A DNA stretch of 64,000 nt, taken from contig PLNR01000006.1 in NCBI GenBank assembly GCA_003141835.1, forward strand, positions 142,558-206,557. The letters run 5' to 3'. A program made the position numbers and the translations under genes. This stretch comes from Candidatus Omnitrophota bacterium (GTDB lineage: Bacteria > Omnitrophota > Gorgyraeia > Pluralincolimonadales > Pluralincolimonadaceae). Below are positions 1,420 through 26,493 of this stretch, in pieces; the first letter of the stretch is position 1, and each line of letters begins with the position of its first letter. A model generated the notes under the pieces. That model was not told the origin of the DNA, made no database searches, and saw nothing but the letters and a program-made list of their open reading frames with translations.

Positions 1420-1446
1420 GGGGGACGTCCCATTGGGGGACACCCT
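1420..1446. repeat. 27-bp REP-like palindromic element, copy 1 (GGGGGACGTCCCATTGGGGGACACCC; inverted relative to copies 3 and 4)
   Basis: Near-identical to the elements at 23422-23448 and 26467-26493. Contains the palindromic GGGACGTCCC half-site. Intergenic, between the phosphorylase-like start and the TrpB2 stop. Confidence 0.7.
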
Positions 1447-1447
1447 A

Positions 1448-2797
1448 TTATGCGTTGCCGATCTCCGGTATTTTCTTTATCGCCTCTTTTATCTTCTCTT
1501 CCGGATGCTCATAGTCCTCGAGCTTTCCGTCGAGGTACGCGTCGTATGCGGAGAGGTCGAAGTGGCCGTGTCCGCTGTAATTGAAGACGATGCATTTGCC
1601 GTCGTTCTTCTTCGCCTCGTCGATGACGCAGCGTATCGCGTGCGCCGTTTCGGGAGCAGGCAGGAATCCTTCTATTCTCGCCCACATCACAGCCGCCTCA
1701 AAGACCGGGTTCTGCGAATACGCCCTCGCCTCTATCACTTTCTTCTTCGCCAACAACGACACCTCAGGCGCCATGCCGTGATACCTCAACCCCCCTGCGT
1801 GTATCCCGGCCGGCACGAAACTGTGGCCCAGCGTGTACATCTTCACAAGCGGCGTAAGTTTCCCGGTATCGCCGAAATCGTACAGGTATTCGCCCTTCGT
1901 CAACGTCGGGCAGGCGGTCGGCTCGACCGCGATGAACTTTATATCCTTCCCCTTTAATTTATCCGGCACGAACGGGAACGTGAACCCGGCGAAATTGCTG
2001 CCGCCGCCGACGCACGCTATCATCGTGTCCGGCTTCTCGCCTATCATCTCGAGTTGTTTCTTCGTCTCGAGCCCGATGACAGACTGGTGCGTAAGCACGT
2101 GGTTTAATACGCTGCCGAGGGAATATTTAGTGTCGTCGTGGATGGCCGCGTCCTCGACCGCCTCTGAGATCGCGATGCCTAAACTGCCCGGCGTCTCCGG
2201 GTCATCGGCCAGAGCCTGCCTTCCGGAATTGGTCTTCGTTGTCGGAGACGGGAATATTTCCGCGCCCCAGACGCGCATCAAGGATTTGCGGTAAGGCTTC
2301 TGGTAATAGCTCGCCTTGACCATATAGACCGTGCATTTCAGGCCAAGGATATTGCAGGCGAACGATAACGCCGAACCCCATTGCCCAGCGCCTGTTTCGG
2401 TCGCTATGCGTTTTACGCCTTCCTTTTTATTGTAATATGCCTGGGCGATGGCCGTGTTCAATTTGTGGCTGCCGGCAGGCGAGGCGCTTTCATCTTTATA
2501 ATAAATGCGGCAATTCGTTTTCAGGGCCTTCTCGAGGCGGACCGCCCTCTTGAGAGGCGTCGGCCTGTAAATTTTATATACATCAAGGACTTCGTCGGGG
2601 ATATCTATCCAGCGCTGCTGGCTCATCTCCTGCTCAATCAACGCCATCGGGAATATCGGCGCCAGGTCGGCTGGCCCGAGCGGTTTCCCGGTCCCGGGAT
2701 TTAAAGGCGGGGGCAATTGTTCGGGCAAGTCAGGGGCAATGTTATACCAGGCTTTGGGGATGTCGTTCAACGACAAGATAACTCTGTCCTTGTCCAT
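1448..2797 (-). CDS. trpB: tryptophan synthase beta chain, TrpB2-type (PLP-dependent)
   Basis: 449-aa ORF. It has the long N-terminal extension typical of TrpB2 and PLP-fold motifs (HKLN, GGGSN); GAG RBS-like context. No trpA adjacent. Confidence 0.8.
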
Positions 2798-2861
2798 CTC
2801 GGTCTCCTTTTACTGGGGGTTATTATGCGGAATTAGGGGTATTTTAGCACAAAGCGTCCCC

Positions 2862-5138
2862 TTAGTATAGGGTTACCTCGTAAATGTCGCATTCACCCTT
2901 GCCGGTGTTGCCGGGGAAATAGAGGTCGAAGTTCCTGACGGCCTGCAGGTCGAGCGTCTTATTGCCGCCCTGGTTGCCGTACATATTCCTGATGGTGAAT
3001 TCCTCGAACGTAAATTCATACGTCTCGGTTTTGCCTGTGCCGTCACCCGTCTCCGAAGCGAAACCCTCGCCGTCGGCCCCGTTGACGCCGTCATACTTCA
3101 CCTTCCCGAGATCGGCCACGCCGGATTCATTTATGAAGACCGAGAACGGCATGCCGTTGGTCAGCGACATCTTTATCCTGATGCCCTTGAAACCCTGGAG
3201 GTCGAAAGAGCCGTCGCTGTTGACGGTCTTGACCTGGCAAGGCAGGCCGAAACCGCAGCCCCAACCGCTGCCGGTATCGATGACGCATTTCAAATAGGCC
3301 CTGCTGAACTTGATCCCGGCCGTTGTCGAGCTGTCCGCCCAGACGCCTAATTTTTCCACATCAATAGTCTTGACGTCGAAGAACGGCTCGGCCTCGCGCT
3401 TGACATCCTTATTGTTAACTTTTGCGTACCCGCCGACCTTGATCAATTTATCCGGATAAGGCATAATGGATTTCTTGTGCATGGAGTCGGCTGCGGCATT
3501 CATCTTCTTCATCTCGGCAGCCAGGAGAGCGTATTCATTATCATGGATGTCGACGAGCCCGTAATCGCTGTCTTCGCCGTCGAAGCTGCGGCCCTGCGGC
3601 GACTCGTCAAAATATTGGAACCAGTGGTAACCGACAAGGTACGGGAATTCCATCATCTGTGTCACGTATTTGTTGAACCCGGCCGCCCTGTCCTGCTGGG
3701 TCCGGACCGTGACATCGGCGCCTTTCCTGTTCTTGTCCCCGCTGCTGTTCTCCATCGCCCTGTAGGAGAACTCGGTTATCATCACCGGCTTCTGCCCGAG
3801 TAAGTAAAAATTATCGATCAGCTCTTTATTGACCTTCATGTCCTTGCAATAATAATTGACCGTCAGCACGTCGCAATACTTCCCGCACGCCCTCGCCACC
3901 TCATCCGGGGCGTTGCCGGCGAAACGGACGCCGAGTATCAGGTGGTTCGGGTCGTACTTTTTGATGAACCCGCATACCGTGGAAAAATACCGTTCGGCGA
4001 TGACGCCGGCAAAAAGCTCCCGCGCCTCTTTGGCCGAGGCGCCGCGCACGTGCATGAAGTCCTCGATGCTCTTGCCGTATTTCTGCTGCAGGAACTCGGC
4101 TAATTTCTGCCTGCCCGGCGCTTTTTCCGGAAGTTTGGCGTATTCATCGAGAAGCGTGGATGGGTGGCCGGTATACCAGCCATAATCCCCGTACCACGGC
4201 AGCTCATTCTCTATAAAATATCCCAAAAGGTATTTCGCGTCCTTGAACCGCTTGCATCTGCCCATAACGTTCTGTTCGGCCATCTCGTCGAACAACGGGT
4301 CAAAAACATCGACGAGCCTGTGGTCGCTAGTCGACGGGATGCCCAGCATGACGGTAAAAGGCATGTCATAATAGAACGTAGCCGGGTCGGACCATGAGCC
4401 TATCGTGTTAAAATCCAGATTTTTAAGGCGCTTTATAACGCTCTTGGCCCACTCGGCGTAATCCTTATACTTCGACGACACGTCATAATATTCGGAATTC
4501 GGAAGCACCGCGCCATCCTTGCTCAGGACCGCGTTGACCCCTTTCGAGATGAACCGCTCCCCGTCCGGAGTGATGAGCCAGTATTTGCCCTTATCCTGTT
4601 TCACGGTGAAAAACGTCTTGCCCTTCGTCAGCATTGCCCTCTTGGAAATATCCTTATACGGCCCGCCTGCCTTGAATTCCATCTCCCATATCGAGAAGCC
4701 CCACGCCGTCGCCCTCTCGATGCAGTCTATCTTCACGAATTTACAGGCTGCCTTCTCCTTAAAATTGATCTTTATATCTTCGCCTTCGTTGCCGTCGTTT
4801 ATCTCGGCGAGGGTCTGCCATGCGGCGCCGTCGGCCGAGCCCAGGACCTTATAACGGTAGGCTGAGGCCGTTTCCCATTTTATCTCGATGCCGTACAGGT
4901 CGACCGGCTGTTCGAATTCCACCTGTATCCACTGGTTATCCTTCAATTCCGATTCCCAGCGGGTGCGAAGATTCCCGTCGACCGCCTTCTCCGGCCTGTT
5001 GTTATCTTTATCGGATGATGCGGTGACGGCTTTGACCGCCGCTGCCGGCGCCGGTGCAGGCGTTTCGGCGCAATAGGCGGGGGTGATAAATATGGGCAAA
5101 AGTGATAACGACAAAATAACGGCGCTAACGGTTTTCAT
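2862..5138 (-). CDS. secreted F5/8 type C (discoidin) domain protein fused to a clan GH-A-like glycoside hydrolase domain
   Basis: Signal peptide MKTVSAVILSLSLLPIFITPAYCA. The N-terminal segment DGNLRTRWESELKDNQWIQVEFEQPVDLYGIEIKW is discoidin-like. The central segment has IENELPW and ITEFSY, which resemble GH-A acid/base and nucleophile motifs. A C-terminal beta-rich region follows. Confidence 0.6.
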   Translation of the reverse strand: MKTVSAVILSLSLLPIFITPAYCAETPAPAPAAAVKAVTASSDKDNNRPEKAVDGNLRTRWESELKDNQWIQVEFEQPVDLYGIEIKWETASAYRYKVLGSADGAAWQTLAEINDGNEGEDIKINFKEKAACKFVKIDCIERATAWGFSIWEMEFKAGGPYKDISKRAMLTKGKTFFTVKQDKGKYWLITPDGERFISKGVNAVLSKDGAVLPNSEYYDVSSKYKDYAEWAKSVIKRLKNLDFNTIGSWSDPATFYYDMPFTVMLGIPSTSDHRLVDVFDPLFDEMAEQNVMGRCKRFKDAKYLLGYFIENELPWYGDYGWYTGHPSTLLDEYAKLPEKAPGRQKLAEFLQQKYGKSIEDFMHVRGASAKEARELFAGVIAERYFSTVCGFIKKYDPNHLILGVRFAGNAPDEVARACGKYCDVLTVNYYCKDMKVNKELIDNFYLLGQKPVMITEFSYRAMENSSGDKNRKGADVTVRTQQDRAAGFNKYVTQMMEFPYLVGYHWFQYFDESPQGRSFDGEDSDYGLVDIHDNEYALLAAEMKKMNAAADSMHKKSIMPYPDKLIKVGGYAKVNNKDVKREAEPFFDVKTIDVEKLGVWADSSTTAGIKFSRAYLKCVIDTGSGWGCGFGLPCQVKTVNSDGSFDLQGFKGIRIKMSLTNGMPFSVFINESGVADLGKVKYDGVNGADGEGFASETGDGTGKTETYEFTFEEFTIRNMYGNQGGNKTLDLQAVRNFDLYFPGNTGKGECDIYEVTLY

Positions 5139-5154
5139 GCGGGCTCCTCCGTAA

Positions 5155-6670: not shown

Positions 6671-6705
6671 TTATACCTCCCTAATTAAGTGAGCTGTCAC
6701 CATAA

Positions 6706-7869: not shown

Positions 7870-7872
7870 TGG

Positions 7873-8313: not shown

Positions 8314-8315
8314 TC

Positions 8316-8669: not shown

Positions 8670-8679
8670 TCCCTCTCCT

Positions 8680-9199: not shown

Positions 9200-9250
9200 C
9201 CCTCCTTTAGCTGTATAGACGCTAAAAGGAGGGATTTTCTTTCAACTATT
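9200..9250. repeat. about 50-bp hairpin repeat, copy A (hairpin with TATAGACG loop plus 18-bp tail GATTTTCTTTCAACTATT)
   Basis: The tail 9233-9250 is identical to 17693-17710, and the loop TATAGACGC is shared. On the minus strand it reads as stem-loop plus T-run plus RBS. It overlaps the SIMPL stop codon. Confidence 0.6.
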
Positions 9251-10816: not shown

Positions 10817-10908
10817 TACGTCTTTTTACTGCCCTTATTGTAATAGACGTATAAAGAAGGCATTTTCTTTCAAAATTATTTTTATAAGGGCGTGGATGGA
10901 GGACTGCC

Positions 10909-12120
10909 CTAAACTTGGTATTCTTCGCCGTCAGTTAGGATTTTGACGTTCTGGAATAGTTTGGGATATCTCTCGGCTTCAAAGGTATGGATGGGGATAA
11001 GGACGCGGGGATTAAGGGCCTTGGCGAAGGCCTGGAGGTCCTCGATGATAGCGTGGCCGCTGGTATGTACCGGCTCGATTATCAGACCCTCGCGCTCACA
11101 ATATGCTTTGAATTCATCGGTCAGATATCCCTGCCACATCGAATAAATTATCTTGGCGCCGCGCGCGCCATCGAGTTCCTTCACCGCGATCGGGAAAAAG
11201 GAATTATCGCGCGCCAGCATAAGTATCCTGTTTTTCATGCGGGCGATCTCGAATAGATCGATCTTTCGCTTGTTATAGACAAAAAGCAAATCCCTGTACC
11301 CGGCGCTTTCTAAACATTTGGCATGGTACCCAAGGAATTTTACCCTGATATTCTTCCAATTAAACTGCGGTATATTTTTAGACACCTTTCTCAGCTTATC
11401 CAATATAAACGCGGTATAAAGGTCTATCACGAATACCGAATCCGTCTTCAAGCATGCCCTGTAAGCCGAAACGATCCTGTCGATGTTCTGGGACGAGGCA
11501 AATAGAAAGGTGATCTCCTTCCTCTCTTCCAATATCCGGGCGATCCGCGCCTCGACCTCTTTCTCGTCTTTATACTCCTGCGCGCCCCTGCCGAGCATCG
11601 AGCCCTCCATTATCAGGCAATCAATATCCTTCGGCGGGGCTTCTAACATCATCTTGAATAACGCGCTCTTCCTCCCGTGGCCGCGGAAATCGCCGGAATA
11701 GAATATCCTCTTGCCTTCGCCCTCCACAAGGAAAGTAAGCGCGTCAAACGCGGAATGGTCGACCTGATACGGCGTCACCGTCATGTCCCCAACGACAAAA
11801 GGCTTTTTTGGCTTTACGATGCGCGTGTTTATCTTGCCGGTCTTGTTCGGCGTGAATATATTGGACACCTCTATCAGCTCTTTTGCCCCCTGGCTCATAT
11901 AAACGGGGATATCCGGATGGATGTGGCCCAGCAAGCCATAATGGTCCATGTGGGAATGTGAGATAAGTACGGCATCCGGGAGGATTTTGGGATAGGATGG
12001 CTTTTCGATCTCTTCGTCCAGCGGCTGGCCGAAATCTATCAGGAGCCGCGTTTTATCTGTCTTTAACTCGACGCAGCTACCGCCGATTTCCTGAGTGCCG
12101 CGGTGGATTGTTACTTGCAC
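10909..12120 (-). CDS. MBL-fold metallo-hydrolase (possible nuclease)
   Basis: HSHMDHYG metallo-beta-lactamase motif near the N-terminus, 403 aa. Start overlaps the upstream gene by 1 nt. Confidence 0.65.
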   Translation of the reverse strand: MQVTIHRGTQEIGGSCVELKTDKTRLLIDFGQPLDEEIEKPSYPKILPDAVLISHSHMDHYGLLGHIHPDIPVYMSQGAKELIEVSNIFTPNKTGKINTRIVKPKKPFVVGDMTVTPYQVDHSAFDALTFLVEGEGKRIFYSGDFRGHGRKSALFKMMLEAPPKDIDCLIMEGSMLGRGAQEYKDEKEVEARIARILEERKEITFLFASSQNIDRIVSAYRACLKTDSVFVIDLYTAFILDKLRKVSKNIPQFNWKNIRVKFLGYHAKCLESAGYRDLLFVYNKRKIDLFEIARMKNRILMLARDNSFFPIAVKELDGARGAKIIYSMWQGYLTDEFKAYCEREGLIIEPVHTSGHAIIEDLQAFAKALNPRVLIPIHTFEAERYPKLFQNVKILTDGEEYQV

Positions 12121-12965: not shown

Positions 12966-12992
12966 TTTAGGTTTCCTGCGAACCTTTTATTT

Positions 12993-13053
12993 GGGGACAC
13001 TCTGCAGCCTGTCCCTTTTTGACACGCCCCTATTACCTACTATTACCTATTAC
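12993..13053. repeat. island repeat unit U1 (GGGGACAC...TGTCCCTTTTTGACACGCCCC plus TATTACC tandem)
   Basis: Shares the core GGGGMSKTKTCAAAAAGGGACA (reverse orientation) with U2, U3 and the helicase-gene element. It sits between the Dam-like MTase stop and the 281-aa gene start. Confidence 0.5.
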
Positions 13054-13101
13054 TTCTTCGTGATTTTGCCTTTTTTACGCCCATAAAATAGCAACCTTAG
13101 G

Positions 13102-13989
13102 TTATACAAATAATGTAAAACAATGTTTATTTTTGATTTTGGGTAAGATACAATTCTCGCTGGATATTAATAATTCCTTACCGATGCTAGCTTTATGAAT
13201 AGAATATCTTATTTTAAGATTATTCCGCTGAACGCCTTTGTAAATATTCTTAATAAATGCTATGTTATCATATGAAAGAACCCATTTTAGATCGCTATTT
13301 TCTTTCAAATAATTGCTTAGTCTTTCGTGTTCTTGGGCCTCCATGTAATATTTATATAAATCTCTTCCCTTTTGATAATACGGAGGATCCAAATATATTA
13401 AATAATTTGATTTATCAGGACTTTTTAACGCTAAGTAAGTTTTTAAAAAATCGACTCCATCCTTATTAAATAGCTCAATTTTACTTTTATATTTTGATAT
13501 CAGTTCGATTCTTTTAATTAAATTTATTTTATTAAACCTTGCGTCAATCTTCCATTCGCCATCCTGCTTCATGCCACCTACTGGACCTGACGATAGTATT
13601 CCAGAACGGTTGCAACGATTTAGATAGAAGCTAGCAAACCCAACATCAATATCTGAACCATGTTTTATAAATTCTTTGTCCTTCAATAAATCTCTTTGTA
13701 TTTTCCACTCGCTAATTTTAACAGGTGTAGAAATTACGCGCGCAATAAAACCATCTGTTTGATTTAAAACTGCTTTCCAGAATTTATATATTCGTTCATC
13801 CAAATCGTTAAGTACGATTTTGTCAACGAACCCTTTCGTCAACAAATTTAAAGCTGCGCCAGCTCCTCCAGCAAAAGGTTCAATATACGCTACGTTGACT
13901 AATTCATTGCTTTGGATCACTTTATTTAAATATTTCCACAAAGCTGTTTTTCCGCCGGGGTATCTCAAGGGACTTATATGATTATCCAT
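13102..13989 (-). CDS. DNA adenine methyltransferase, Dam-like (alpha class)
   Basis: EPFAGGAGAALN (motif I) near the N-terminus and YLDPPYY (motif IV, DPPY) in the C-terminal half. AT-rich. Confidence 0.8.
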   Translation of the reverse strand: MDNHISPLRYPGGKTALWKYLNKVIQSNELVNVAYIEPFAGGAGAALNLLTKGFVDKIVLNDLDERIYKFWKAVLNQTDGFIARVISTPVKISEWKIQRDLLKDKEFIKHGSDIDVGFASFYLNRCNRSGILSSGPVGGMKQDGEWKIDARFNKINLIKRIELISKYKSKIELFNKDGVDFLKTYLALKSPDKSNYLIYLDPPYYQKGRDLYKYYMEAQEHERLSNYLKENSDLKWVLSYDNIAFIKNIYKGVQRNNLKIRYSIHKASIGKELLISSENCILPKIKNKHCFTLFV

Positions 13990-15374: not shown

Positions 15375-15427
15375 TTAAACCTCCTCAAGTAATAAAATAT
15401 CTTCCGCCCTTATTTGAAATTTAACTA

Positions 15428-15500
15428 GGGGGACGCATACCTTATGACACTGTGCAACCTGTCCCTTTTTGAAGAGTCCTCTATTCTACTTCTATTATTT
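15428..15500. repeat. island repeat unit U2
   Basis: GACACTGTGCAACCTGTCCCTTTTTGAAGAG...CTATTCTACTTCTATTATTT is collinear with U1. Confidence 0.45.
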
Positions 15501-15514
15501 GCTATGGGAACTTC

Positions 15515-15575
15515 GGGGACGTGTCATTTTGGGGCACCCTGCAATCTATTTCTTTTTGACACGTCACTAATATTT
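15515..15575. repeat. island repeat unit U3 (bounded by 9-bp inverted repeat GACGTGTCA / TGACACGTC)
   Basis: GGGGACGTGTCATTTTGGGGCACCCTGCAATCTATTTCTTTTTGACACGTCAC. Confidence 0.45.
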
Positions 15576-15619
15576 TGAATTGATCTGCTCAGAGCTTATC
15601 TAGATTGGAGTATTAGTAA

Positions 15620-16561
15620 TCAAATGCCTTTCAAAAGCTTAGAAAATCCTGCGGTATTAACGAAATAATTGCTCTTATTCTTTTTAAGATATTTATATAT
15701 ATCTTTTTTTGCTTTTGACATCTTATTGTCTGTTGATGCTTCAATTAGTTCGTTAAACATAATTCCATCCAAAAATGCTACATACGAAACATTTTTGTCT
15801 GTGTATTTCAATAAATCCACTATTTCTACAATTGCACCGTATTGCCCTCCACCGCCACCTTTTTTATGTTTATGCTCAACAACATACATATTAGGCCCTT
15901 TTTGAATATAACAATCTGGCATCTTACCTTGTTTTGATTTACTCCATTCAAATTTAATATTACGTTTGTTACAAATGTCTTTAAAATATTTTTTCTCTCC
16001 TTTATCAGGCAATAAATAAAACGAATCCTTTTTGATATCATCGCTTCTTTTATATCTTTTGAAACCTTCCCGCTCAACAAGCATAATAATCTTATTTGCT
16101 CCTGTTGAGCCCCCTCTTTTATGCGAATAATTGTCAGATAGTACTTGTAAAACAATATTAGAATATCCATGAGATGAATACATCGAATGCCTATCCTTAA
16201 TATATTTAATTAACAATTCCCGTAGTAATTTTTTTCTTTCTTGTTCTTTTTCGGCACGCAGTACAGAATATGGCATATCCCATACCATTAAATATTGCGA
16301 GAATGCCGTATAATTCATATGATGTATTTTGAATAATATTGAATCAATCTCCCTGATAATTTCATCATCCTGCTTCTTGGTGAGCTTACCATCCAAAGTA
16401 TGGTACGTTGTTATTAGATCAATTAACCTTTCATTGCTATTAATAATCTTGTTTTTATCTTTTGCGTTTTTCGTTATTACAATAATTTCTTTTTTATTAG
16501 CATCATCAAAAATCTGCTCTCTATTCTTTAACGAGTATTCGAATAAGAGGATGTTGTCCAT
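15620..16561 (-). CDS. hypothetical protein; candidate restriction endonuclease partner of the adjacent MTase
   Basis: 313 aa, AT-rich, no recognisable motifs. Overlaps the upstream NPPY methyltransferase gene by 34 nt. Confidence 0.35.
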   Translation of the reverse strand: MDNILLFEYSLKNREQIFDDANKKEIIVITKNAKDKNKIINSNERLIDLITTYHTLDGKLTKKQDDEIIREIDSILFKIHHMNYTAFSQYLMVWDMPYSVLRAEKEQERKKLLRELLIKYIKDRHSMYSSHGYSNIVLQVLSDNYSHKRGGSTGANKIIMLVEREGFKRYKRSDDIKKDSFYLLPDKGEKKYFKDICNKRNIKFEWSKSKQGKMPDCYIQKGPNMYVVEHKHKKGGGGGQYGAIVEIVDLLKYTDKNVSYVAFLDGIMFNELIEASTDNKMSKAKKDIYKYLKKNKSNYFVNTAGFSKLLKGI

Positions 16562-17613
16562 AATAATTCTTCTCCATAAATATTATTATACGCATTTTCG
16601 AGTATGGCCCTTGCAGTTTCATAATCTAGGCGCCTTCTTCTGCAACCATTTTTCATATTTCCTTTAAAGGGCGACAAAAGCACATCATTCGTTTTGTCTC
16701 TATAATCTGTAAGAATGTTATTGCATTTCTCCAAAAACAATTCTAGCTTATCATGCTTTAATTTATCCAATTTAATTATTGTTATTAGCCTAGAGCTTAT
16801 CTTAATCCCCTTTAAATCATAATCAAGTTCTTCCTTTTTCATGAATTTTATCATGGATTTAGGATTTGTTGTGTCGACCGCTCTTAAGGCAATATTTCCA
16901 CTAGTATCATTAAAAAATATCCTAAGGTATTTTGCGGGCCTTAATCTCAATTTTTCATAATAGTCCAGATTATTTAAATATTTATCATTTTTATACACCT
17001 TGATTTCCGAATATTCTTTTGCTCTGCCATCAAAGCAAAGAACACATACCGGCGTCTCTGTATCATCAAAACAATTTTCTTCTATTATAGTAATCGAATT
17101 TAATCGATATTTATGCTTAAAATTACTATTTATGAAAGTCTCTGGAACAATTGCTACAACGTATTCTTGCGCTTGCAGCATTTTTTCAAGTGCAATTAAA
17201 TATAAATCGCCATATTCAGAACTAATAAAATAATTTTCAGTACTATCATAGATACCTTTTCTTTTAGCACTATAATTACTTAGGTAGGGCGGATTTGTAA
17301 TTATTATGGCATTTTTTCTTGTGGGAATTTTTAATAAACTATCATTCACTGGGAAATTCTTTTTAGAGTCTATGTCCAAACCAAACGCTTTGGTAATTCC
17401 GAAATTATCGGAGAGTTTTAACAAATCGCCGTCTCCAGCATATGGATCATAAATCTCACTACAACCGCTGGATATCACGAATTCTTTAATATGAGTTTTT
17501 AGCCATTTATCTTTTTTAGTAAAATATTGTCCTAATATTTTTTGGTTCATATAATGCCTCTGACAATATTGCGTTTTTTCGTCTCTAACATGGACTTTTA
17601 TCTCGCTTGTCAT
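16528..17613 (-). CDS. N6-adenine (or N4-cytosine) DNA methyltransferase, gamma-class order (motif I then NPPY)
   Basis: DPYAGDGDLL (SAM-binding) followed about 40 residues later by IIITNPPY. Confidence 0.7.
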   Translation of the reverse strand: MTSEIKVHVRDEKTQYCQRHYMNQKILGQYFTKKDKWLKTHIKEFVISSGCSEIYDPYAGDGDLLKLSDNFGITKAFGLDIDSKKNFPVNDSLLKIPTRKNAIIITNPPYLSNYSAKRKGIYDSTENYFISSEYGDLYLIALEKMLQAQEYVVAIVPETFINSNFKHKYRLNSITIIEENCFDDTETPVCVLCFDGRAKEYSEIKVYKNDKYLNNLDYYEKLRLRPAKYLRIFFNDTSGNIALRAVDTTNPKSMIKFMKKEELDYDLKGIKISSRLITIIKLDKLKHDKLELFLEKCNNILTDYRDKTNDVLLSPFKGNMKNGCRRRRLDYETARAILENAYNNIYGEELLWTTSSYSNTR

Positions 17614-17661
17614 GTGTATTTTAACACCTCCCTATTCATGCGTCAATGCAAGGTTTCTTTG

Positions 17662-17710
17662 CTTCCTTACCTATATAGACGCAAGTTAGGAAGATTTTCT
17701 TTCAACTATT
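17662..17710. repeat. about 50-bp hairpin repeat, copy B (partner of 9200-9250)
   Basis: CTTCCTTACCTATATAGACGCAAGTTAGGAAGATTTTCTTTCAACTATT. Identical 18-bp tail and TATAGACGC loop. Confidence 0.6.
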
Positions 17711-17764
17711 TTTTAGAGTTTCCCCTATAACTCCTCACCTTTCATCGGCGTTGCACTCGGGTCC

Positions 17765-17992
17765 CTAATAATTAAAAATATCTTTAATAGCAAAATTATC
17801 TTCCGGCTTTAGCGCGCGAAGGGCATTCAGAATCTTATGTTGGATATTAAGGGTTAATCGCCTTCCCTTGCGCCCCTTTTGCACCATCTTATGCGACAAC
17901 TGCTCAGTGGAAATCTTAACAAGGTCAGAGTTTGAAAAACCTAGCCGCACCATGATCCTGTCAAGCGGCTGGATGCCTAATTCTTCCTTCAT
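17765..17992 (-). CDS. small hypothetical protein (75 aa), basic, possibly DNA-binding
   Basis: Its ATG overlaps the TGA of the upstream NYN gene (ATGA). Flanked by a roughly 30-bp direct repeat. Confidence 0.35.
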   Translation of the reverse strand: MKEELGIQPLDRIMVRLGFSNSDLVKISTEQLSHKMVQKGRKGRRLTLNIQHKILNALRALKPEDNFAIKDIFNY

Positions 17993-18360
17993 ATTTTACT
18001 CCAAAACTCCTCGCATTTCATCGGCGTTGCACGCGCATCCTTCGCATAAAAATACAGCGAGCGGTCGGAGGAGACGACACGCAGGTTGCGGCGCTGGCGC
18101 GGCGGGATCTGGTCGATGTGTTTCTTTATGTAAGAGTCGGCGTTCCGGGCCGCGACGATATGCAGTTTCGCCGTGCTCCTGTTCGGTATATCGAGATATT
18201 CATTCTTGCTGTCGAATACAAGGGTGATGGGGTCGGCGTGGGTCTCCTGGAACTTCTCCAGGATAGCGATCAGGTGCATGGCGCCGGCCAGGGCGTCGTC
18301 ATGATCTATCCCTGAGCCTTCGTGGCGGACCATGTTCCAACCGTCTATAAGTATAGGCAT
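17989..18360 (-). CDS. NYN/PIN-like (YacP-like) domain protein
   Basis: N-terminal ILIDGWNMV and acidic residues are typical of YacP/NYN nucleases. Confidence 0.5.
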   Translation of the reverse strand: MPILIDGWNMVRHEGSGIDHDDALAGAMHLIAILEKFQETHADPITLVFDSKNEYLDIPNRSTAKLHIVAARNADSYIKKHIDQIPPRQRRNLRVVSSDRSLYFYAKDARATPMKCEEFWSKI

Positions 18361-18373
18361 GGCTCCCTAGCAC

Positions 18374-19516
18374 CTAAACCTTTTCGTGGCTAAATTGGCG
18401 CAGATAATCACTGTACATAAACTTGCGATTGCGCTCTTTTCCGGTTATTTCATATAATATGTCTGCCTTAACAAACTTTTCTATCAACTGAAGGATATTC
18501 GCTTTAGAGGATATTCCGGTAATCCGCGAGGCAATCCCTGAATCTACTATAGGGGTTGAATATAGTTTGTTTAACAGTTTTAAGGCTGTTGCGGAATTTC
18601 TGCCCATGCCGGAAACCTTCCTGATGTGCTCCTCCCTTAATTTTGTGATCTTTTGGGCAGTTATCACGGCTTCCTCAGAAACTTCGCGTACGCCTACAAG
18701 AAAATATTTTAGCCAATCTTCTATACCTTTATTAAACCTATATCCGTTTAATTTATCGTAATAATTTGTACGGTGTTTTTTAAAATACTCCGAAATATAC
18801 AAAAGTGGCCGGGACAGCACCTGTTCTTTGTAAAGATAAAAAGTAATCAAGAGTCTCCCCATCCTTCCGTTACCGTCAAGGAACGGATGGATGGTTTCAA
18901 ATTGAGCGTGTATAATGCCGGCTTTTATTAAAGGCGGAAGTTTCGTGGTTTCATCGTGCAAGAACTTTTCCAGATCAGACAAAGATTCATGCATTTGGTG
19001 AGCGGGCGGAGGAACAAAAAAAGCTGTTTCTATAGTAGGGCCTCCTATCCAATTTTGGGAAGTCCTGAATTCCCCCGGATTTCTGTGCTGCCCACGCACT
19101 CCTTTAAGCAAGGCGGAATGCATTTCTCTTATCAAACGCCAGGAGAGAGGAAAGGTCTTTAGCCTTTCTATGCCATGATCCATTGCGGTTATGTAGTTTT
19201 TTATCTCATCGACATCCGAAGGGGAATCCTTATCCTTTAGTTTCGCCTCCGCTTTTATGTAATCGATGAATGTCGCCTGAGTACCTTCTATCTGGCTTGA
19301 TAACGCGGCTTCTTTCGTAACGTACATGTAGATAAAGAAATTAACGTCGGGGACAAGCTGGTCTATGGCATTGAGACTACCTATAGCGCGATCTGCCTTT
19401 GAGAGAAGCATGATTAAATTGTCATCCCAGTTTATGAGATGCTCAGGTGGAAATTTTGCCGGTATAAACGCCTTGTAACCTGTAGGTTGCTGTTGATAAA
19501 AACCTATTTTTCCCAT
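18374..19516 (-). CDS. Fic family protein (probable AMPylase) with C-terminal winged-helix
   Basis: Canonical Fic motif HPFLDGNGRMGR within a 380-aa ORF. Confidence 0.85.
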   Translation of the reverse strand: MGKIGFYQQQPTGYKAFIPAKFPPEHLINWDDNLIMLLSKADRAIGSLNAIDQLVPDVNFFIYMYVTKEAALSSQIEGTQATFIDYIKAEAKLKDKDSPSDVDEIKNYITAMDHGIERLKTFPLSWRLIREMHSALLKGVRGQHRNPGEFRTSQNWIGGPTIETAFFVPPPAHQMHESLSDLEKFLHDETTKLPPLIKAGIIHAQFETIHPFLDGNGRMGRLLITFYLYKEQVLSRPLLYISEYFKKHRTNYYDKLNGYRFNKGIEDWLKYFLVGVREVSEEAVITAQKITKLREEHIRKVSGMGRNSATALKLLNKLYSTPIVDSGIASRITGISSKANILQLIEKFVKADILYEITGKERNRKFMYSDYLRQFSHEKV

Positions 19517-19688: not shown

Positions 19689-22600
19689 TTACCCCCAGCA
19701 GATATCGTAAAAATCGCATTTATTGTTGCCCTGGCCGCATTTGCCGGGTTTCTCGTCGATCTCCGGCAGTTTGGCGAAGTCGAGCTTCCTGATGCGGCGG
19801 CTAACGTCCTTTATGAGCGACTCGAGCTCGGCGACCATATCCTCGGTCAGCTCGACCTTCTTCTTGACGAATTCGCCTTCCTTGAGGTCGTGCTTTATGA
19901 CCGTCTCTTTAGCCGGGTCGAGGAAGACGAGCACCCCCTCCTTTACCTTGCGGCCCTGTGATTCCTTCTTGTCCCTGTCGAAGAGGAGTTTATACGCGAT
20001 GAGCTGGCGCAGGTACCCCTCGAACTCATCACTTGATACCGGTATCTTTTTCGCGAGAGAATTATTGATCCCTTTGACATGTCTATCCGGTTCACCCGTT
20101 TTATAATCTATCACACGAACGGCGGCGGTGCCCGCGGGTTCGGTTTTATCATATTTTCCGGTAAATTTCAGGTCGTCATCGAGCATGACCATCAGGTTTT
20201 TCTCGAGGCCGAGCGGCTTTATCGGCGCGCGTGATTCTTCCTTGAACCAGGCCTTGAACGTCTCGACCTGGCGCAGGCAGGCGGTCTTTATCGCCGCTTC
20301 CGGGGCTTCGTGGCTTAATTCCCTGGTGAACGCCTCCTTGAAGAACGCGAAATCCGGGAATTTGCCGGTCTTCATGAATTTATCATAGGTATTTTCCAGC
20401 GCCTTGTGGGTGCAGTTACCGAAGACGAGCGGCTGCTTCTTGCCCGACGGCAGCATCAGGGCGTTATCATAGAGATATTTGCGCGGGCAATTTATATAAT
20501 TGTTGAGCGATGTGGGGTTGAGCGAGATGCCGGCGACGAGGTCTTTCAATATCTTGTCGGTGCCGATGAACGGGTCTTCTGCGTCGGTTATCTCGAGCGC
20601 GGCTTTGAGCAGGTCCTCTTCTTTATTTGCGGAGGCCTCCCCATCGGCCACGCCCGTAAGATACGAGCTCGGGATCGCGCTCTCGGTCGGGCTGGCGGTG
20701 TAGATGAGGTTCGCCTTGGCGCGCGTCGAGGCGACGTAGAACAGGCGCGTCTCGTCGTAATAATCGAGTTGCTTTAAGATATCCTTGTCGGGCGGGATCT
20801 CCTTCGACTTGTAGACCTCGGGCGGGAGCGGGATCGAGACGCCCTGCGGCCGCTTCGGCCAGCGCTTCTTTTCGAGGCAGAACGGGATGAATACCGTGTG
20901 GAATTCGAGGCCTTTCGAGCCGTGGGCCGTGTAGATGCGCACGCCTTCCTGCGTGGCCGTGACGAGCTCGCCCTTCAGGGACATGCCGTGGGCCTTGCGG
21001 GTCTCGAGCTCATCGATGAATTCCTTGAGCGTGATGCCCGGGCGCGCGATGTCGGATTCCTTGACCATGTTGACGAATGACGTTAGCGCGCGCAGGTCGC
21101 GGATGCGCAGGAGATCATTATCATCATATTTATCCAAGATGAACTTCAAAACCCCTGCATCTTTGATAAATTGCATCAAAATTGCATGCACTGGTCTACT
21201 TTCGGCTTCAAAAAGCAAAGCAGAAATCGAAGCTAAATTTGGGGACGTTTCAAAAAGGGACACTTCACCCACTGAAGTATTAGCAGGGGTGAAATGTAAC
21301 CCTTTTTGAAACGTCCCCAAGCGCATTAGCTCGCTGAACATCGAAATCGTCGGGGCTTCGCCCTTCTTGCGCTGGTCATATTTTTTCACCCGGACTTCGG
21401 CGATGAAGCGCAGGACGTCGCTCATCGGGATGTGCATGTAATCGGCGGTCAAAATGCGGTAGAGATAGGCGTCTTTCTGCTCTATATCGATGTCGGGCGT
21501 GTGCGCGAAATAGAGCACGTCGAGCATCTGGCGGACGCGCTTCTCGCCGGCGATGTCCTCCTTGCCGTCGGTTGCGTACGGGATACCGGCGCGCAGGAAA
21601 GTGTCGACTATTTTGAGGATATCGTCGCGCTGGCGCACGAGGACGGCGACTTCATCAAGCGGGACCTCCTCCTTCTTCGCGATCTCCTTTATGCGGCGCG
21701 CGATAAAGAGCAACTCCTCGGTCTCGGTCGTGAATTCGTCATATTCGATGGTCTTTTTCTTGAAATCTGTCTCCGGCGCGAGTTCTTTGGCGTGGACGCG
21801 CTCTTTAACCGGAAGGTTATTTATTATGCGGCCTGCGAGCGAGATTATCTCTTTTGTCGAGCGGTAGTTCTTTTCGAGCGGGATCTCTTTTAATTTCGGA
21901 AATCTCTTCTTTAGTTCGCGGAAATTCGCTACCGACGCCCCCTGGAACCTAAAAATAGATTGGTCGTCGTCCCCTACGCAGCAAATATTCGTGCCGCCTA
22001 GCTCGAATAATAAGTCCATCTGCGCGCCGTTGGTGTCCTGGAACTCATCAACCATGATGTAGGTGTACTGCTTCTGGAGGGCGGATTTGAGCTCCGGTTC
22101 ATTGCGGATCGCCTCGACCGCGAAAAGTATCATATCATCGTAATCGTAGCGGCCCCGGTCATCGAAAAGTGCCTTATTTTTGCCCGCTTTGTACTCTTCA
22201 TACAGCTTATATACGGTGGCGAGGGCCTTGAGACGTTCTATGTGCTTTTCTTCAATGTAGGCGCCGTCAGGCTCGGTTTTTTCTATTATCTCAGCGAACT
22301 GCGCCGGCGAAACACCTTCGCGCTTAAGCTCGGTTATCCGCTGGCTTATCTCGCGCTCAAAAGCGTACGGCGCGCGGAACGGCCGGATCTTATCGATGCC
22401 GTCAGTATTATCCAAAATATATTCGAGGAGCTTTATCTGCTCGATATCGGTTATCTGGACGCGTTCCTGGATGTATTCGGCCGCCTCTTCGGACTCCAAC
22501 ACGACAGAATTCGCGAAACTGTGGAATGTCGCCGTTTCAATATTGTAAGCGGCGGCTCCAAGGAGTTTCACGAGGCGCTCTTTCATCGCCTTCGCGGCGG

Positions 22601-22775
22601 CATTCGTGTATGTTAGGATGAGGATATTCTCGGGGCGGGCCTTCTTTGCCTTAATTATGTTCGCCGCGCGGACGGAAAGCAGCTCGGTCTTGCCTGTTCC
22701 GGGTCCGGCTAGGACTAAAACGGGGCCATCGAGGGTCTCGGCGGCTAATTTTTGCTTGGTATTCAGATTGATCAT
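19689..22775 (-). CDS. UvrD/PcrA-like SF1 helicase fused to a C-terminal PD-(D/E)XK Cas4/AddB-like nuclease with Cys cluster
   Basis: Walker A LAGPGTGKT and helicase motifs in the N-terminal 650 aa. C-terminal segment VIDYKTGEPDR...QLIAYKLL plus Cys residues (NCPRKY...CGQGNNKCDFYDIC). Start taken at MINLN (ATG 22775). The track ORF extends to 22823. Confidence 0.8.
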   Translation of the reverse strand: MINLNTKQKLAAETLDGPVLVLAGPGTGKTELLSVRAANIIKAKKARPENILILTYTNAAAKAMKERLVKLLGAAAYNIETATFHSFANSVVLESEEAAEYIQERVQITDIEQIKLLEYILDNTDGIDKIRPFRAPYAFEREISQRITELKREGVSPAQFAEIIEKTEPDGAYIEEKHIERLKALATVYKLYEEYKAGKNKALFDDRGRYDYDDMILFAVEAIRNEPELKSALQKQYTYIMVDEFQDTNGAQMDLLFELGGTNICCVGDDDQSIFRFQGASVANFRELKKRFPKLKEIPLEKNYRSTKEIISLAGRIINNLPVKERVHAKELAPETDFKKKTIEYDEFTTETEELLFIARRIKEIAKKEEVPLDEVAVLVRQRDDILKIVDTFLRAGIPYATDGKEDIAGEKRVRQMLDVLYFAHTPDIDIEQKDAYLYRILTADYMHIPMSDVLRFIAEVRVKKYDQRKKGEAPTISMFSELMRLGTFQKGLHFTPANTSVGEVSLFETSPNLASISALLFEAESRPVHAILMQFIKDAGVLKFILDKYDDNDLLRIRDLRALTSFVNMVKESDIARPGITLKEFIDELETRKAHGMSLKGELVTATQEGVRIYTAHGSKGLEFHTVFIPFCLEKKRWPKRPQGVSIPLPPEVYKSKEIPPDKDILKQLDYYDETRLFYVASTRAKANLIYTASPTESAIPSSYLTGVADGEASANKEEDLLKAALEITDAEDPFIGTDKILKDLVAGISLNPTSLNNYINCPRKYLYDNALMLPSGKKQPLVFGNCTHKALENTYDKFMKTGKFPDFAFFKEAFTRELSHEAPEAAIKTACLRQVETFKAWFKEESRAPIKPLGLEKNLMVMLDDDLKFTGKYDKTEPAGTAAVRVIDYKTGEPDRHVKGINNSLAKKIPVSSDEFEGYLRQLIAYKLLFDRDKKESQGRKVKEGVLVFLDPAKETVIKHDLKEGEFVKKKVELTEDMVAELESLIKDVSRRIRKLDFAKLPEIDEKPGKCGQGNNKCDFYDICWG
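21241..21319. mobile_element. MITE-like structured element inside the helicase-nuclease CDS (perfect 19-bp terminal inverted repeats GGGGACGTTTCAAAAAGGG / CCCTTTTTGAAACGTCCCC plus nested hairpin)
   Basis: It is embedded in an AT-rich stretch of about 200 bp (21125-21330) within an otherwise GC-rich gene. The reading frame is maintained. Its core is related to the island repeats U1-U3. Confidence 0.45.
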
Positions 22776-22822
22776 ATTTATGCTATAATTGGATGGTATA
22801 ATTATACCCCAAGGAGGACGCA
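22776..22822. promoter_or_regulatory. divergent promoter region (two TATAAT boxes, RBS AAGGAGGA for the plus-strand gene)
   Basis: TATAAT at 22784-22789 and 22797-22802. AAGGAGGA 5 nt upstream of ATG 22823. Confidence 0.35.
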
Positions 22823-23155
22823 ATGAAAACTGCTATTATTATGTTATCTGTTCTCTCTTTTACCCTTTTCGTGAGCCCGGCAACGGTCAAGGCCGAAGGC
22901 ACCAGCGGCACGCTCGCCGCGCAGGTAGATACGGTCACTGTGGCACAGACCGAGGGCGAGGATTCCACCGTTTCAGTTGTAGATGAATCCGGCGTCACGA
23001 TACTCTTTTATGTGACAGCCGCAACCGTCATCTCCGGCCCGATAGGCGAGCCGATAAGCCTCGGCAATATCAACCAGAACGACCCGGTCGAGATAGAATA
23101 CGATAATCTCGAGGGCGGGGTCGGGCTGGCGAAGTCAATAAAACTAACAGAGTAA
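22823..23155 (+). CDS. small secreted protein, paralog 1 of 3 (possible OB-fold periplasmic protein)
   Basis: Signal peptide. Shares the C-terminal pattern of hydrophobic and Gly positions with 25322-25636 and 25662-26000. Confidence 0.5.
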   Translation: MKTAIIMLSVLSFTLFVSPATVKAEGTSGTLAAQVDTVTVAQTEGEDSTVSVVDESGVTILFYVTAATVISGPIGEPISLGNINQNDPVEIEYDNLEGGVGLAKSIKLTE

Positions 23156-23160
23156 ATATA

Positions 23161-23207
23161 GGGTGTCCCCCACTGAGGTGGGACCTTGCCCCAATGGGAC
23201 GTCCCCC
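23161..23207. repeat. REP-like element copy 2 (split by a 19-bp internal insert)
   Basis: GGGTGTCCCCC / ACTGAGGTGGGACCTTGCC / CCAATGGGACGTCCCCC. Confidence 0.6.
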
Positions 23208-23215
23208 AGGAAAAA

Positions 23216-23896
23216 ATGCGCATACTTGTAGTCGAAGACGAAAAAAAGATAGCAAATTTCATAAAACGCGGCCTGAAGGAAGAGGGCTACGCTGTCGACG
23301 CGGCTGAAGACGGCGAGCAGGGATATTTTATGGCCACAACGCAGGATTACGACCTCATCGTCCTCGACCTGATGCTGCCGAAGATGGATGGCCTCACCCT
23401 TTGCAGGAAGTTGCACGAAATGGGGTGTCCCCCAATGGGACGTCCCCCAGTATTGATACTCACGGCCAAGGACACGGTAAAAGACAAGGTCTCCGGCCTC
23501 GACTCCGGCGCGGACGATTACATCACCAAGCCGTTCGCTTTCGAGGAGTTCCTGGCGCGGGTGCGGGCGCTTTTGCGCAAACGCGAAGGCAGTGCGTCGA
23601 CGAAACTCACGGCCGGCGAACTCACGCTCGACCTCGTCACGCACAAGGTATCGCGCGGCGGCAAAGAGATCGAGCTTACGGCCAAGGAATACGCGCTCCT
23701 TGAATATTTCATGCGCAACGCCGGCACGTGCGTCACCAGGACGATGATATCCGAGCACGTCTGGGACATGAATTTCGATAGTTTTACAAACGTCATAGAC
23801 GTCTATGTGAACTATCTACGAAAAAAACTGGACAACGGCCCCGGCAAAAAACTCATCCAGACCGTCCGCGGCAGGGGTTATATCCTCAAAGGTTAA
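23216..23896 (+). CDS. OmpR-family response regulator
   Basis: Receiver domain (VVEDE, D..LDLMLP, LTAKD) plus winged-helix effector (LTAKEYALLEYF...RTVRGRGY). Confidence 0.85.
   Translation: MRILVVEDEKKIANFIKRGLKEEGYAVDAAEDGEQGYFMATTQDYDLIVLDLMLPKMDGLTLCRKLHEMGCPPMGRPPVLILTAKDTVKDKVSGLDSGADDYITKPFAFEEFLARVRALLRKREGSASTKLTAGELTLDLVTHKVSRGGKEIELTAKEYALLEYFMRNAGTCVTRTMISEHVWDMNFDSFTNVIDVYVNYLRKKLDNGPGKKLIQTVRGRGYILKG
23422..23448. repeat. REP-like element copy 3, inside the response-regulator CDS (encodes GCPPMGRPP in frame)
   Basis: GGGGTGTCCCCCAATGGGACGTCCCCC. Confidence 0.7.
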
Positions 23897-23897
23897 T

Positions 23898-25247
23898 ATG
23901 AATATCAAGTCTATCCGCGTCAAACTGATCCTCTGGTACATGATGTTGCTCGCGCTGACTCTTATATTCTTCAGCGTGCTTCTCTACAACATCTTCAGCG
24001 GCAGCATAAGAAGCAGCGCCGACGCCCTCCTGCGGTCGAGGGCCGAGGGCATCGCGAACTCTATAGACACCTATTGGGAGACCGAGCGGCTCGAGGCGAT
24101 AAAAGACGGCGTTGTCATCGAGGAATTCAGCAAGATAGACAACATCAATTTCGCCAAGGTAGCCCAGCGCTGGGTCGAGGAAAAAAGCAACGACCCCCAG
24201 CTCATAGGGACTATCGTCCAGATATACGACGCCGACGGGAACCGCATCGCGTATTCAAAGAACATCCCGAAGATATCCATCCTTTCGCAAAAGACTTTTG
24301 CTCACATCCTCAAGGGAAAGGGCATATTTGAAAAAATAGATATTGACCTGCCGGGAAGCAAGCCGGTAGACCTGAGGACACTCACGATGCCGGTGATGGA
24401 AAATCACAAGGTCGCCTATATCGTGCAGGTGGCAAGGCCCCTTGCCCTGGTGACCTCGGCGCGGCAGAATTTGAAGTTCCTCCTCTTCATCCTCCTCCCC
24501 CTGACCGTCCTCCTGACCGGGTTGATCGGGTCGATACTGGCGAAATTCGCCAACCTGGAACGGTCATTCATGATGCAGAAGCAATTCATCGAGGACCTTT
24601 CGCACGAATTGAAGACCCCTCTCTCCGTTTTAAAGGGCGAGATGGAGGTCACATTAAAGAAGTTGCGCTCGCCCGAGGATTACGAGTCGATATTAAAGAG
24701 CGGCCTCGATGAGACGAATACCCTCATCCGGATCGTCGAGAACCTTTTGATGCTGGCGAGGTTCGACAGCAATGCTATCCCGCTTGAAATGAAGACGCTC
24801 GATGCCGCGGAAATAATACGTAACGCCGCGCGTGATGTCAAAGTCCTCGCCGACCAGAAAAATATAACCATATCCCTACCCCCGGCCGCGGTGGCCGGAG
24901 CCACGAAAATAAAAGGCGACGAAGGCCAGATACGCCGGCTCTTTTTGAACCTGTTCGACAACGCCGTCAAATACACCCCTGAGGGGGGAAGCGTGACGGT
25001 GGATATCGCCGAAGACCATCCTTACGTGAAGATCTCGGTTACCGACACGGGCGTGGGCATCCCCCCTGCCGAGCTGCCGCATATATTCGACAGATTCTTC
25101 CGCGTAGACAAATCCCGCGGGTCGGTCGGCTTCGGCCTGGGGCTAAGCATATCGAAAGCCATCGCAGAAGCGCACAAGGGCCGCATCGAAGTTAAGAGCG
25201 AGCCGGGCCGCGGCGCCACATTCACGGTATTCATTAGAAATTTTTAA
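23898..25247 (+). CDS. sensor histidine kinase (HisKA + HATPase_c), two TM segments
   Basis: H-box SHELKTPL. N, G1 and G2 boxes (NLFDNAVKYT, DTGVGI, GLGLSI). Confidence 0.85.
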   Translation: MNIKSIRVKLILWYMMLLALTLIFFSVLLYNIFSGSIRSSADALLRSRAEGIANSIDTYWETERLEAIKDGVVIEEFSKIDNINFAKVAQRWVEEKSNDPQLIGTIVQIYDADGNRIAYSKNIPKISILSQKTFAHILKGKGIFEKIDIDLPGSKPVDLRTLTMPVMENHKVAYIVQVARPLALVTSARQNLKFLLFILLPLTVLLTGLIGSILAKFANLERSFMMQKQFIEDLSHELKTPLSVLKGEMEVTLKKLRSPEDYESILKSGLDETNTLIRIVENLLMLARFDSNAIPLEMKTLDAAEIIRNAARDVKVLADQKNITISLPPAAVAGATKIKGDEGQIRRLFLNLFDNAVKYTPEGGSVTVDIAEDHPYVKISVTDTGVGIPPAELPHIFDRFFRVDKSRGSVGFGLGLSISKAIAEAHKGRIEVKSEPGRGATFTVFIRNF

Positions 25248-25321
25248 TCATCTACTAATGATGGTTTAACCGCCGTTATTGTATACTTCCTCCTAGATAC
25301 AATAAAAAGGAGGTGAAACAA

Positions 25322-25636: not shown

Positions 25637-25661
25637 GATATTCGGGATGGAAGGAGCGGGA

Positions 25662-26000: not shown

Positions 26001-26014
26001 ATCCAAAGCAGTAA

Positions 26015-26069
26015 AGAGGACATCTGTAGTTTAAGAGGGCCACCCCCTCCAGGATGTCCTCTTTTTTTT
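26015..26069. terminator. bidirectional rho-independent terminator between convergent genes
   Basis: AGAGGACATC...GATGTCCTCT stem followed by TTTTTTTT. Confidence 0.65.
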
Positions 26070-26451
26070 ACCGCAATACTGCGTTTATTTCGGGATTGCC
26101 GTGCAGGGTGTTGTGGACGGGGCAATTATTGATGAAGCGCATGAGGTTGTCCTTTTTTGCCTGGTCTAACGGCGCGTCTTTCAGGTCTATCACGACGTTT
26201 ATCTTCCTGAAACTCATTACCGGGGTCTTTTCGAGCTCGGCCTCGACGCTGATGCTGAATTCCTTGATCGGGAGCTTCATGTTATCGGCGTACCTGCGCA
26301 GGAAGACGCCCATGCACGAGCCCAAAGCCGCCAAAAGCGTCGGCAGCGGACCGAGGTTCTCTTTTTCGGCCATGTCTATCGTGGATTTCGCCTCACCCGA
26401 CGTCACATTAAACACGCTGCCCTCTTTGCATGAAATGTCGACTTTATACAT
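26068..26451 (-). CDS. OsmC/Ohr-family peroxiredoxin-like protein
   Basis: 127 aa with LAALGSCMG and NCPVHNTL motifs. Confidence 0.7.
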   Translation of the reverse strand: MYKVDISCKEGSVFNVTSGEAKSTIDMAEKENLGPLPTLLAALGSCMGVFLRRYADNMKLPIKEFSISVEAELEKTPVMSFRKINVVIDLKDAPLDQAKKDNLMRFINNCPVHNTLHGNPEINAVLR

Positions 26452-26466
26452 GTTTTCCTCCGGAAT

Positions 26467-26493
26467 GGGGTGTCCCCCAATGGGACGTCCCCT
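26467..26493. repeat. REP-like element copy 4 (intergenic)
   Basis: GGGGTGTCCCCCAATGGGACGTCCCC, between the OsmC start and the YhaM-like stop. Confidence 0.7.

Follow-up and report, generated by a model that had tools for sequence, protein, structure and literature searches.

How does a short palindromic repeat come to lie in frame inside the receiver domain of a bacterial response regulator, and what could have carried it there? The question is raised by a 64,000-nucleotide (nt) stretch of a Candidatus Omnitrophota genome (assembly GCA_003141835.1, contig PLNR01000006.1, positions 142,558 to 206,557), the whole of which is referred to here as the window. The repeat belongs to the repetitive extragenic palindrome (REP) class. 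Comparison with related loci, designated by L numbers, indicates that these REPs are very probably short non-autonomous hairpin elements of a narrow Omnitrophota clade, paired with a domesticated, single-copy Y1 (HUH) transposase of the REP-associated tyrosine transposase (RAYT) type.

The self-complementary decamer GGGACGTCCC is found four times in the window, at 1422, 23196, 23437, and 26482, against an expectation of 0.08 from dinucleotide-preserving shuffles. The 26-mer GGGGTGTCCCCCAATGGGACGTCCCC, with zero occurrences expected, is present without mismatches at 23422–23447 and 26467–26492 and with one mismatch on the minus strand at 1421–1446, which bears out the claim of an earlier note on this DNA that a REP-like element recurs here at least four times. 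Combining 24 distinct copies of this form (type 1) from the window and related loci yields, head first, the consensus CCTAG-GGGACGTCCC-ATTGG-GGGACACCCC-ATT. Pairwise similarity between the window copies delimits an imperfect palindrome of 32–33 nt, within the 20–40 bp that define a REP stem-loop. The head tetranucleotide is CTAG in 10 copies, CTGG in four, GTAG in two, and another sequence in eight, so that its TAG core is kept and its first base is mostly C; the tail reads CATT in 14 of the 24. The arms are predicted to form ~10 paired positions around a 5-nt loop, interrupted by two G·T pairs on one strand and by two A·C mismatches on the other. Predicted folding energies of the two strands are −17.1 and −16.9 kcal/mol as RNA and −8.1 and −8.8 kcal/mol as single-stranded DNA.

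All six reading frames of the element are free of stop codons, and the artefactual open reading frame (ORF) peptides previously attributed to it, WGTSHWGTP and LGDVPLGDT, are indeed present. The repeat can also be described as two tandem 15-nt units, ATGGGRYGTCCCCCA, and all eight unit matches in the window fall in the four copies. This description is valid, but the hairpin and the association with a RAYT account for more. A scan of the whole window at the Rfam gathering thresholds matched no family.

Three of the four copies, counting type-1 and long forms, are intergenic and lie a few bases from stop or start codons; within the window, type 1 occurs as singlets, not doublets. Copy 1 (1419..1448, minus) occupies the 39-nt gap between the stop codon of a TrpB-like PALP gene (1448..2797, minus) and the start codon of a GH94-like gene (..1408, minus). 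The GH94-like start codon is adjoined by the 3′ flank of the copy, CAGGAAAGGAAAATG, which supplies or abuts the ribosome-binding site. Copy 2 (23158..23208, plus), GGGTGTCCCCC-ACTGAGGT-GGGACCTTGCCCCAATGGGACGTCCCC, is situated between a 110-aa gene (22823..23155) and the regulator start at 23216. It is followed by CAGGAAAAAATG, and the gap upstream of the regulator measures 60 nt, versus 4–15 nt in orthologous loci. This copy had been placed at 23161–23207 and described as split by a 19-bp insert; both halves are present, but they, like the 15-nt units, stand 21 nt apart rather than 19. Nor is it an interrupted one-off. The long form, GGGTGTCYCC-loop-GGGACCTTGCCCCAATGGGACGTCCCC, recurs at L005:1440–1493 and L005:4746–4801 and is a recurrent subfamily, not a chance interruption.

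Copy 4 (26465..26494, plus) separates an HD-domain gene (26492..27433, minus) from an OsmC gene (26068..26451, minus), and its CTA end forms the TAG stop codon of the HD gene. In L016 (GCA_028716565.1), the closest relative with DNA available, the HD orthologue ends one codon sooner with TAA, and a different palindrome fills the HD/OsmC gap, which differs in length from that of the window by only ~8 nt. Across the window, REP copies contribute one TAG stop to a gene end, and two of them abut a ribosome-binding site. Copy 4 scored as terminator-like on the plus strand. A terminator role was rejected on orientation: the T run required of an intrinsic terminator is found in copy 4 only, where it faces against both flanking genes.

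Copy 3 (23420..23449, plus) lies inside the OmpR/CusR-type response regulator gene (23216..23896, plus; 226 aa), in frame as previously reported, and encodes MGCPPMGRPP in the α3–β4 loop. In receiver domains this loop is located on the face opposite the phosphorylation site. Orthologous regulators that are 92–94% identical and 222 aa long carry no REP and read LRGEKVP----SSILILTAK where the window regulator reads LHEMGCPPMGRPPVLILTAK. The proposed insertion of nine residues is therefore correct in being absent from orthologues but not in being a clean gain of nine: 12 residues replace eight, a net change of +4 aa and +12 nt. At the DNA level, the copy stands in place of about 15–20 nt of ancestral regulator sequence that includes GGTCCCC. 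The same four-residue surplus before the β4 strand is observed in sequence alignments with the solved regulators 1KGS and PhoP. These alignments were used to place the insert, as the predicted structure (20-sequence alignment) was too poor, with a mean predicted local distance difference test score of 57 and values <50 in the receiver domain.

Because the regulator frame is intact and the histidine kinase gene (23898..25247) follows immediately 3′, the change is, as judged from these alignments, lineage-specific and in frame rather than a clean insertion. Recent activity of the element had also been suggested. Copy identity is no sign of this, as species whose RAYTs share only 78–91% identity have one and the same 26-nt core; it is absence from orthologues that shows a lineage-specific gain, and this alone dates the regulator copy.

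A second in-frame palindrome, of a related arm type (type 2), is found in an AddA-like UvrD/PD-(D/E)XK helicase-nuclease gene (19689..22823, minus; 1028 aa in the database protein P0243, whose start is placed at 22775). The element is an inverted doublet at 21239..21320 that encodes LGTFQKGLHFTPANTSVGEVSLFETSPN. Its two 21-nt arms are 100% complementary and extend to an 82-nt hairpin with a predicted energy of −33.8 kcal/mol as single-stranded DNA (z = −11). The doublet is thus REPIN-like, with two inverted REPs a short distance apart forming one long hairpin. Type-2 arms read GGGGTGTCCC-TTTTTGAA-ACGTCCCC, versus GGGGTGTCCC-CCAATGGG-ACGTCCCC in type 1. Two further stretches resemble type 2: a degenerate relic, TGTCCCTTTTTGACACGCCCCT, at 13010..13031 (plus), intergenic within a low-GC restriction-modification island, and a similar one at 15460–15481; their assignment to type 2 is weak.

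Alignment of 23 helicase orthologues reveals that the linker holding the doublet is hypervariable. Near relatives carry the REP-encoded peptides GVSPNGTSP (P0248), GVSLFDTSP (P0256), and GDVPFGDT...GVSPSRTSP (P0253), and the sequence there is unrelated in distant orthologues. One and the same codon position is occupied by a perfect type-1 copy in L018, a type-2 copy in L017, and the type-2 doublet in the window. The L016 helicase, 90% identical to that of the window, holds yet another repeat. Within 20 kb, this relative has no type-1 or type-2 REP; its own palindromic repeat (…GGTGACAG…) is located at the helicase site, in the HD/OsmC gap that corresponds to copy 4, and at five further sites. 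The AATTAAGGTGACAGTATACTTAATTA and TTTTGGTGACAGYTTCTCTAATTCC forms of this repeat map to L016 7779, 8814, 9237, 10790/10838, 11518–11600, and 13213, and some of these sites are orthologous to REP sites of the window. Sister genomes hold different REP families at orthologous sites.

The candidate enzyme comes from related loci. On a 46-kb contig (L005/L006), a 203-aa ORF (L005:2763–3374) is enclosed by inverted REPs lying 2 nt after its stop codon and 17 nt before its start codon. The encoded protein matches Pfam Y1_Tnp (PF01797) above cut-off (E = 1.5e-15), and its best NCBIfam match is NF047646, REP-associated tyrosine transposase, at 69 bits, compared with 23 bits for the IS200 model. It contains the HUH-type motif HIHLL and the motif RYIERNP, in which Y120 is a candidate catalytic tyrosine, judging from RAYT motifs. 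Its closest homologues, with 78–91% identity, are encoded on six further contigs (L010–L015) drawn from metagenome-assembled genomes (MAGs) at NCBI and from ENA and JGI. On all seven contigs (L005/L007 and L010–L015), which come from close relatives (Omnitrophota MAGs and metagenome contigs), the transposase gene is located between inverted exact 26-mers with their heads pointing outward. As L012–L014 are near-identical copies of one locus, the seven contigs amount to about four variants of a single syntenic locus.

The neighbors of the transposase gene are alike on every contig, with polysaccharide-export/BBP2_2 on one side and, where covered, MFS and/or MacB on the other. This conserved chromosomal position is the mark of a domesticated transposase, and a Y1/HUH gene between inverted REPs is what defines a REPtron; the locus shows the canonical REP-RAYT arrangement. 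The earlier suggestion of a cognate RAYT is thus borne out by exact flanking elements in relatives, but no such gene is encoded in the window, and the cognate enzyme is accordingly seen in relatives only. We infer that a RAYT is present elsewhere in the window's own genome. The low-GC island at 12–18 kb was considered as the transposase carrier and rejected, as restriction-modification genes were found there instead. A third palindrome, AACTGGTGCCAATTTGTCACCAGTT, accompanies the type-1 REP at a distance of ~30–60 nt in two different genomes (L003 6452–6472 and L005 3425–3445); the L005 copy lies just upstream of the REP that flanks the RAYT gene.

Among 185,579 species-representative genomes, the exact 25-mer occurs once, in the Omnitrophota MAG L003, where it abuts a TAG stop codon. 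A slightly degenerate pattern retrieves five stretches on four contigs from metagenomes. The names of homologues of window genes also point to Omnitrophota, and on the strength of these matches the family is restricted to a narrow clade of that phylum.

Within that clade, in-frame copies are not confined to the regulator and the helicase. The rpoN gene of relatives carries two, encoding GDVPLGDTP and a degenerate GDVSLGDTP. A MiaB/RimO-like radical-SAM gene carries one (NGVSPNGTSP), and a polysaccharide-export gene carries one near its N-terminus. The MacB linker of L005 contains an inverted REP pair of ~100 nt that adds only 36 nt (+12 aa) relative to the L010 orthologue. These intragenic copies are read in several frames and in both orientations, and their host genes have normal domain content; we presume that the proteins are still functional. 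Intragenic copies make up about one-third of this small sample, a share that looks high. The degenerate rpoN copy (L006 289–320; 21/26 nt, encoding QGDVSLGDTPL) is positioned just ahead of the conserved LTLKEVA helix-turn-helix region of sigma-54, which would be an unusually conserved place for a REP relic.

An independent assembly covers part of the window. Logan contig SRR7151659_10645 (run SRR7151659), 22,032 nt in length, corresponds to window positions ~1417–23448, with one end in copy 1 and the other in the regulator copy. Generated by separate assembly software, it verifies the regulator copy at its left junction, and its ends fit a multicopy repeat of at least 31 nt breaking the de Bruijn graph. 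With contig ends in two copies, the REPs evidently fragment short-k assemblies of the window's organism.

These observations suggest a route by which the regulator acquired its insert. The transposase would recognize the imperfect REP hairpin in single-stranded DNA, cut beside it, and rejoin it elsewhere to generate new copies. Copies landing in tolerant loops or linkers, with a net length change divisible by three, would be kept as short Gly/Pro-rich inserts, such as the one in the α3–β4 loop of the regulator; the helicase doublet, in a hypervariable linker, would be another. In-frame survival at such sites would be possible because the element contains no stop in any of its six frames.

Several points weigh against this reading. 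The proposed RAYT-driven mobility is modeled on E. coli TnpA-REP and the IS200/IS605 family. The L005 transposase, at 69 bits, falls under the curated cut-off of 80 for the NCBIfam RAYT model, and a PDB sequence search with it returned no match to a solved structure. A tblastn search of the 64-kb window with the RAYT yielded noise only. The REP head is mostly CTAG, and the canonical head is GTAG or a listed degenerate form such as GYAG, GTRG, or GTGG. The copies are too nearly identical for covariation to bear on the predicted hairpin. Finally, the regulator loop, the MacB linker, and the HD/OsmC gap all appear, from sequence comparison, to have undergone partial replacement, which simple cut-and-paste does not foresee. 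This pattern fits insertion followed by trimming, fast-evolving linkers, or a replacement mechanism aimed at existing hairpins.

The last of these leads to a rival account, in which the repeats, though REP-like in sequence, spread mainly by templated replacement rather than by RAYT transposition. Gene conversion, or template switching while hairpins or short stretches of homology are being replicated, would overwrite the resident sequence, often an older palindrome. Such a process would explain why the regulator lost about 15–20 nt, including GGTCCCC, for a net gain of 12 nt, why the ~100-nt MacB pair adds only 36 nt, and why the HD/OsmC gap changes by only ~8 nt and holds a different palindrome in L016. 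It would likewise account for a helicase codon position that holds type 1, type 2, a type-2 doublet, or the L016 repeat, depending on the genome. The same pattern is, however, predicted by insertion with selection for short loops and by fast-evolving linkers; the comparison at each site covered only two to four orthologues, and the strict REP-RAYT-REP layout on seven of seven contigs argues for involvement of the transposase. We consider templated replacement as the main mode of spread unlikely.

Less likely still is that the REP is not a mobile element but primarily a functional cis signal selected site by site, as an mRNA-stabilizing or terminator hairpin or a protein-binding site. The position of three of the four window copies a few bases from stop or start codons in co-directional operon gaps, the terminator-like score of copy 4 on the plus strand, and stem G·T pairs that suit RNA folding are all in its favor. 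Yet copies point either way relative to transcription and, within genes, are read in several frames, copy 4 points away from its flanking genes, and orthologous operons work without the REP; the absence of an Rfam match also tells against a cis signal, which would leave the transposase association unexplained. A secondary, exapted RNA role could exist alongside mobility. That the repeat arose as an artefact of assembly or sequencing, or that the regulator peptide is an ancestral low-complexity loop, is effectively refuted. The source is a MAG, in which short repeats can cause misjoins, but each window copy lies between flanks that are collinear, left and right, with orthologous loci; independent assemblies from NCBI, ENA, JGI, and Logan all contain the 26-mer; and the orthologous regulators have a different, shorter loop.

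A more speculative extension of this RAYT-based account, which we regard as doubtful, is that REPs of the Omnitrophota clade may overwrite resident sequence, often an older palindrome, at preferred sites. Orthologous and even codon-exact sites would then be held in succession by whichever family the RAYT currently propagates, and an element open in all frames would act as a steady source of loop peptides.

Other features of the window lie apart from the REPs. Downstream of the helicase gene, positions 12000–18000 form a low-GC island (33–37% versus ~52%) that, besides several ORFs without a Pfam match, encodes a D12 adenine methyltransferase (13102..13989) and an Eco57I-like methylase (16528..17613). 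NYN_YacP and Fic genes (17989..19516) come next. At the corresponding position, L016, L017, and L018 carry other defense genes (GmrSD, type I HsdR, DpnI, and AbiEii); the region is a variable defense island. A ~49-nt repeat at 9202–9250, 10830–10878, and 17662–17710, composed of a CTCCTTT...AAAGGAG hairpin and GGATTTTCTTTCAACTATT, is located directly upstream, on the minus strand, of the ORF6N-like, Gp49/HigB-like, and Eco57I-like methylase genes and may be a shared promoter and ribosome-binding-site cassette. A tandem 15-nt C-rich repeat (CCCCCGCCTCCCCCTCCGCCGCC...) at 29032–29090 is contained in a 577-aa ORF (29025..30758, minus), implying a putative Gly-rich low-complexity stretch in the encoded protein.

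The system most closely resembles the GTAG-tagged REPs associated with RAYTs (REPtrons) of E. coli, Pseudomonas, Stenotrophomonas, and Opitutus terrae, treated by Di Nocera et al. (2013) and reportedly by Nunvar in 2010 and by Bertels and Rainey in 2011. Shared traits include an imperfect palindrome of 20–40 nt with G·T pairs, a short unpaired head and tail, copies beside gene ends, a head that donates TAG stops, and a single-copy, syntenic Y1 transposase between inverted copies. Both systems comprise singlets, inverted doublets, and subfamilies, and both include in-frame copies, notably in UvrD/RecB-type repair genes at a common site. The Omnitrophota system differs from GTAG REPtrons in its mostly CTAG or CTGG head, a RAYT under the NCBIfam cut-off, an element open in six frames, and the intragenic share of copies, about one-third in a small sample, which looks high. 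REPINs, inverted REP doublets that reportedly form the replicating unit in Pseudomonas fluorescens (Bertels and Rainey, 2011), find their counterpart in the long hairpins of the helicase type-2 doublet and the L005 MacB inverted pair; unlike REPINs, the type-1 copies of the window are singlets, and doublets do not predominate in the sampled loci.

Much of this behavior has precedents. In-frame intragenic REPs, which the earlier note held to be rare, are numerous in this clade, and REPs wholly within ORFs have been catalogued in several phyla, most of all in Opitutus terrae and Rickettsia conorii (Di Nocera et al. 2013, PMC3733652). The same survey, whose phyla do not include Omnitrophota, reports REP heads donating TAG stops, G·T pairs in stems, UvrD/RecBCD-type genes decorated with REPs, and two Xanthomonas species with different REPs at about the same recB site. 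Orthologous RAYTs flanked by different REP classes are also on record (Nunvar et al. 2013, PMC3686654). Like the CGTC-tagged REPs of Di Nocera et al. (2013), the Omnitrophota element contains CGTC (GGGA-CGTC-CCC), but here the tetranucleotide is paired inside the stem rather than forming an unpaired terminal tag, and the family flanks a Y1 transposase of the RAYT type, which the CGTC-tagged REPs lack. As far as they are described in PMC3733652, which cites Ogata et al. 2000/2002, the Rickettsia palindromic elements RPE-1, RPE-4, and RPE-6 are alike in behavior only, as in-frame palindromes that add short peptides at tolerant sites of proteins left intact elsewhere. They belong to another host; RPE-1 is longer, and RPE-4 and RPE-6 are CGTC-tagged, with no dedicated transposase in that account. 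As these REP behaviors had already been described in 2013, the Omnitrophota REP is a new family in a new phylum and not a new kind of element.

With this finding the REP/RAYT partnership reaches Omnitrophota, an undersampled and largely uncultured phylum. It provides a compact, well-controlled case of REPs in frame in a receiver domain and a repair helicase, for which some orthologues possess the element, others lack it, and still others bear a different one. In annotation, the REPs account for the spurious ORF peptides that keep recurring, for the changed stop codon of the HD gene, and for the assembly breaks at these positions. To our knowledge, the in vivo RAYT reaction has never been directly observed; if resident sequence were indeed overwritten at preferred sites, the series of orthologous sites in the window, L016, L017, and L018 would constitute a natural record of that reaction. 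The apparent overwriting of resident bases and the succession of REP families at orthologous sites are modestly interesting leads on how RAYTs act in cells.

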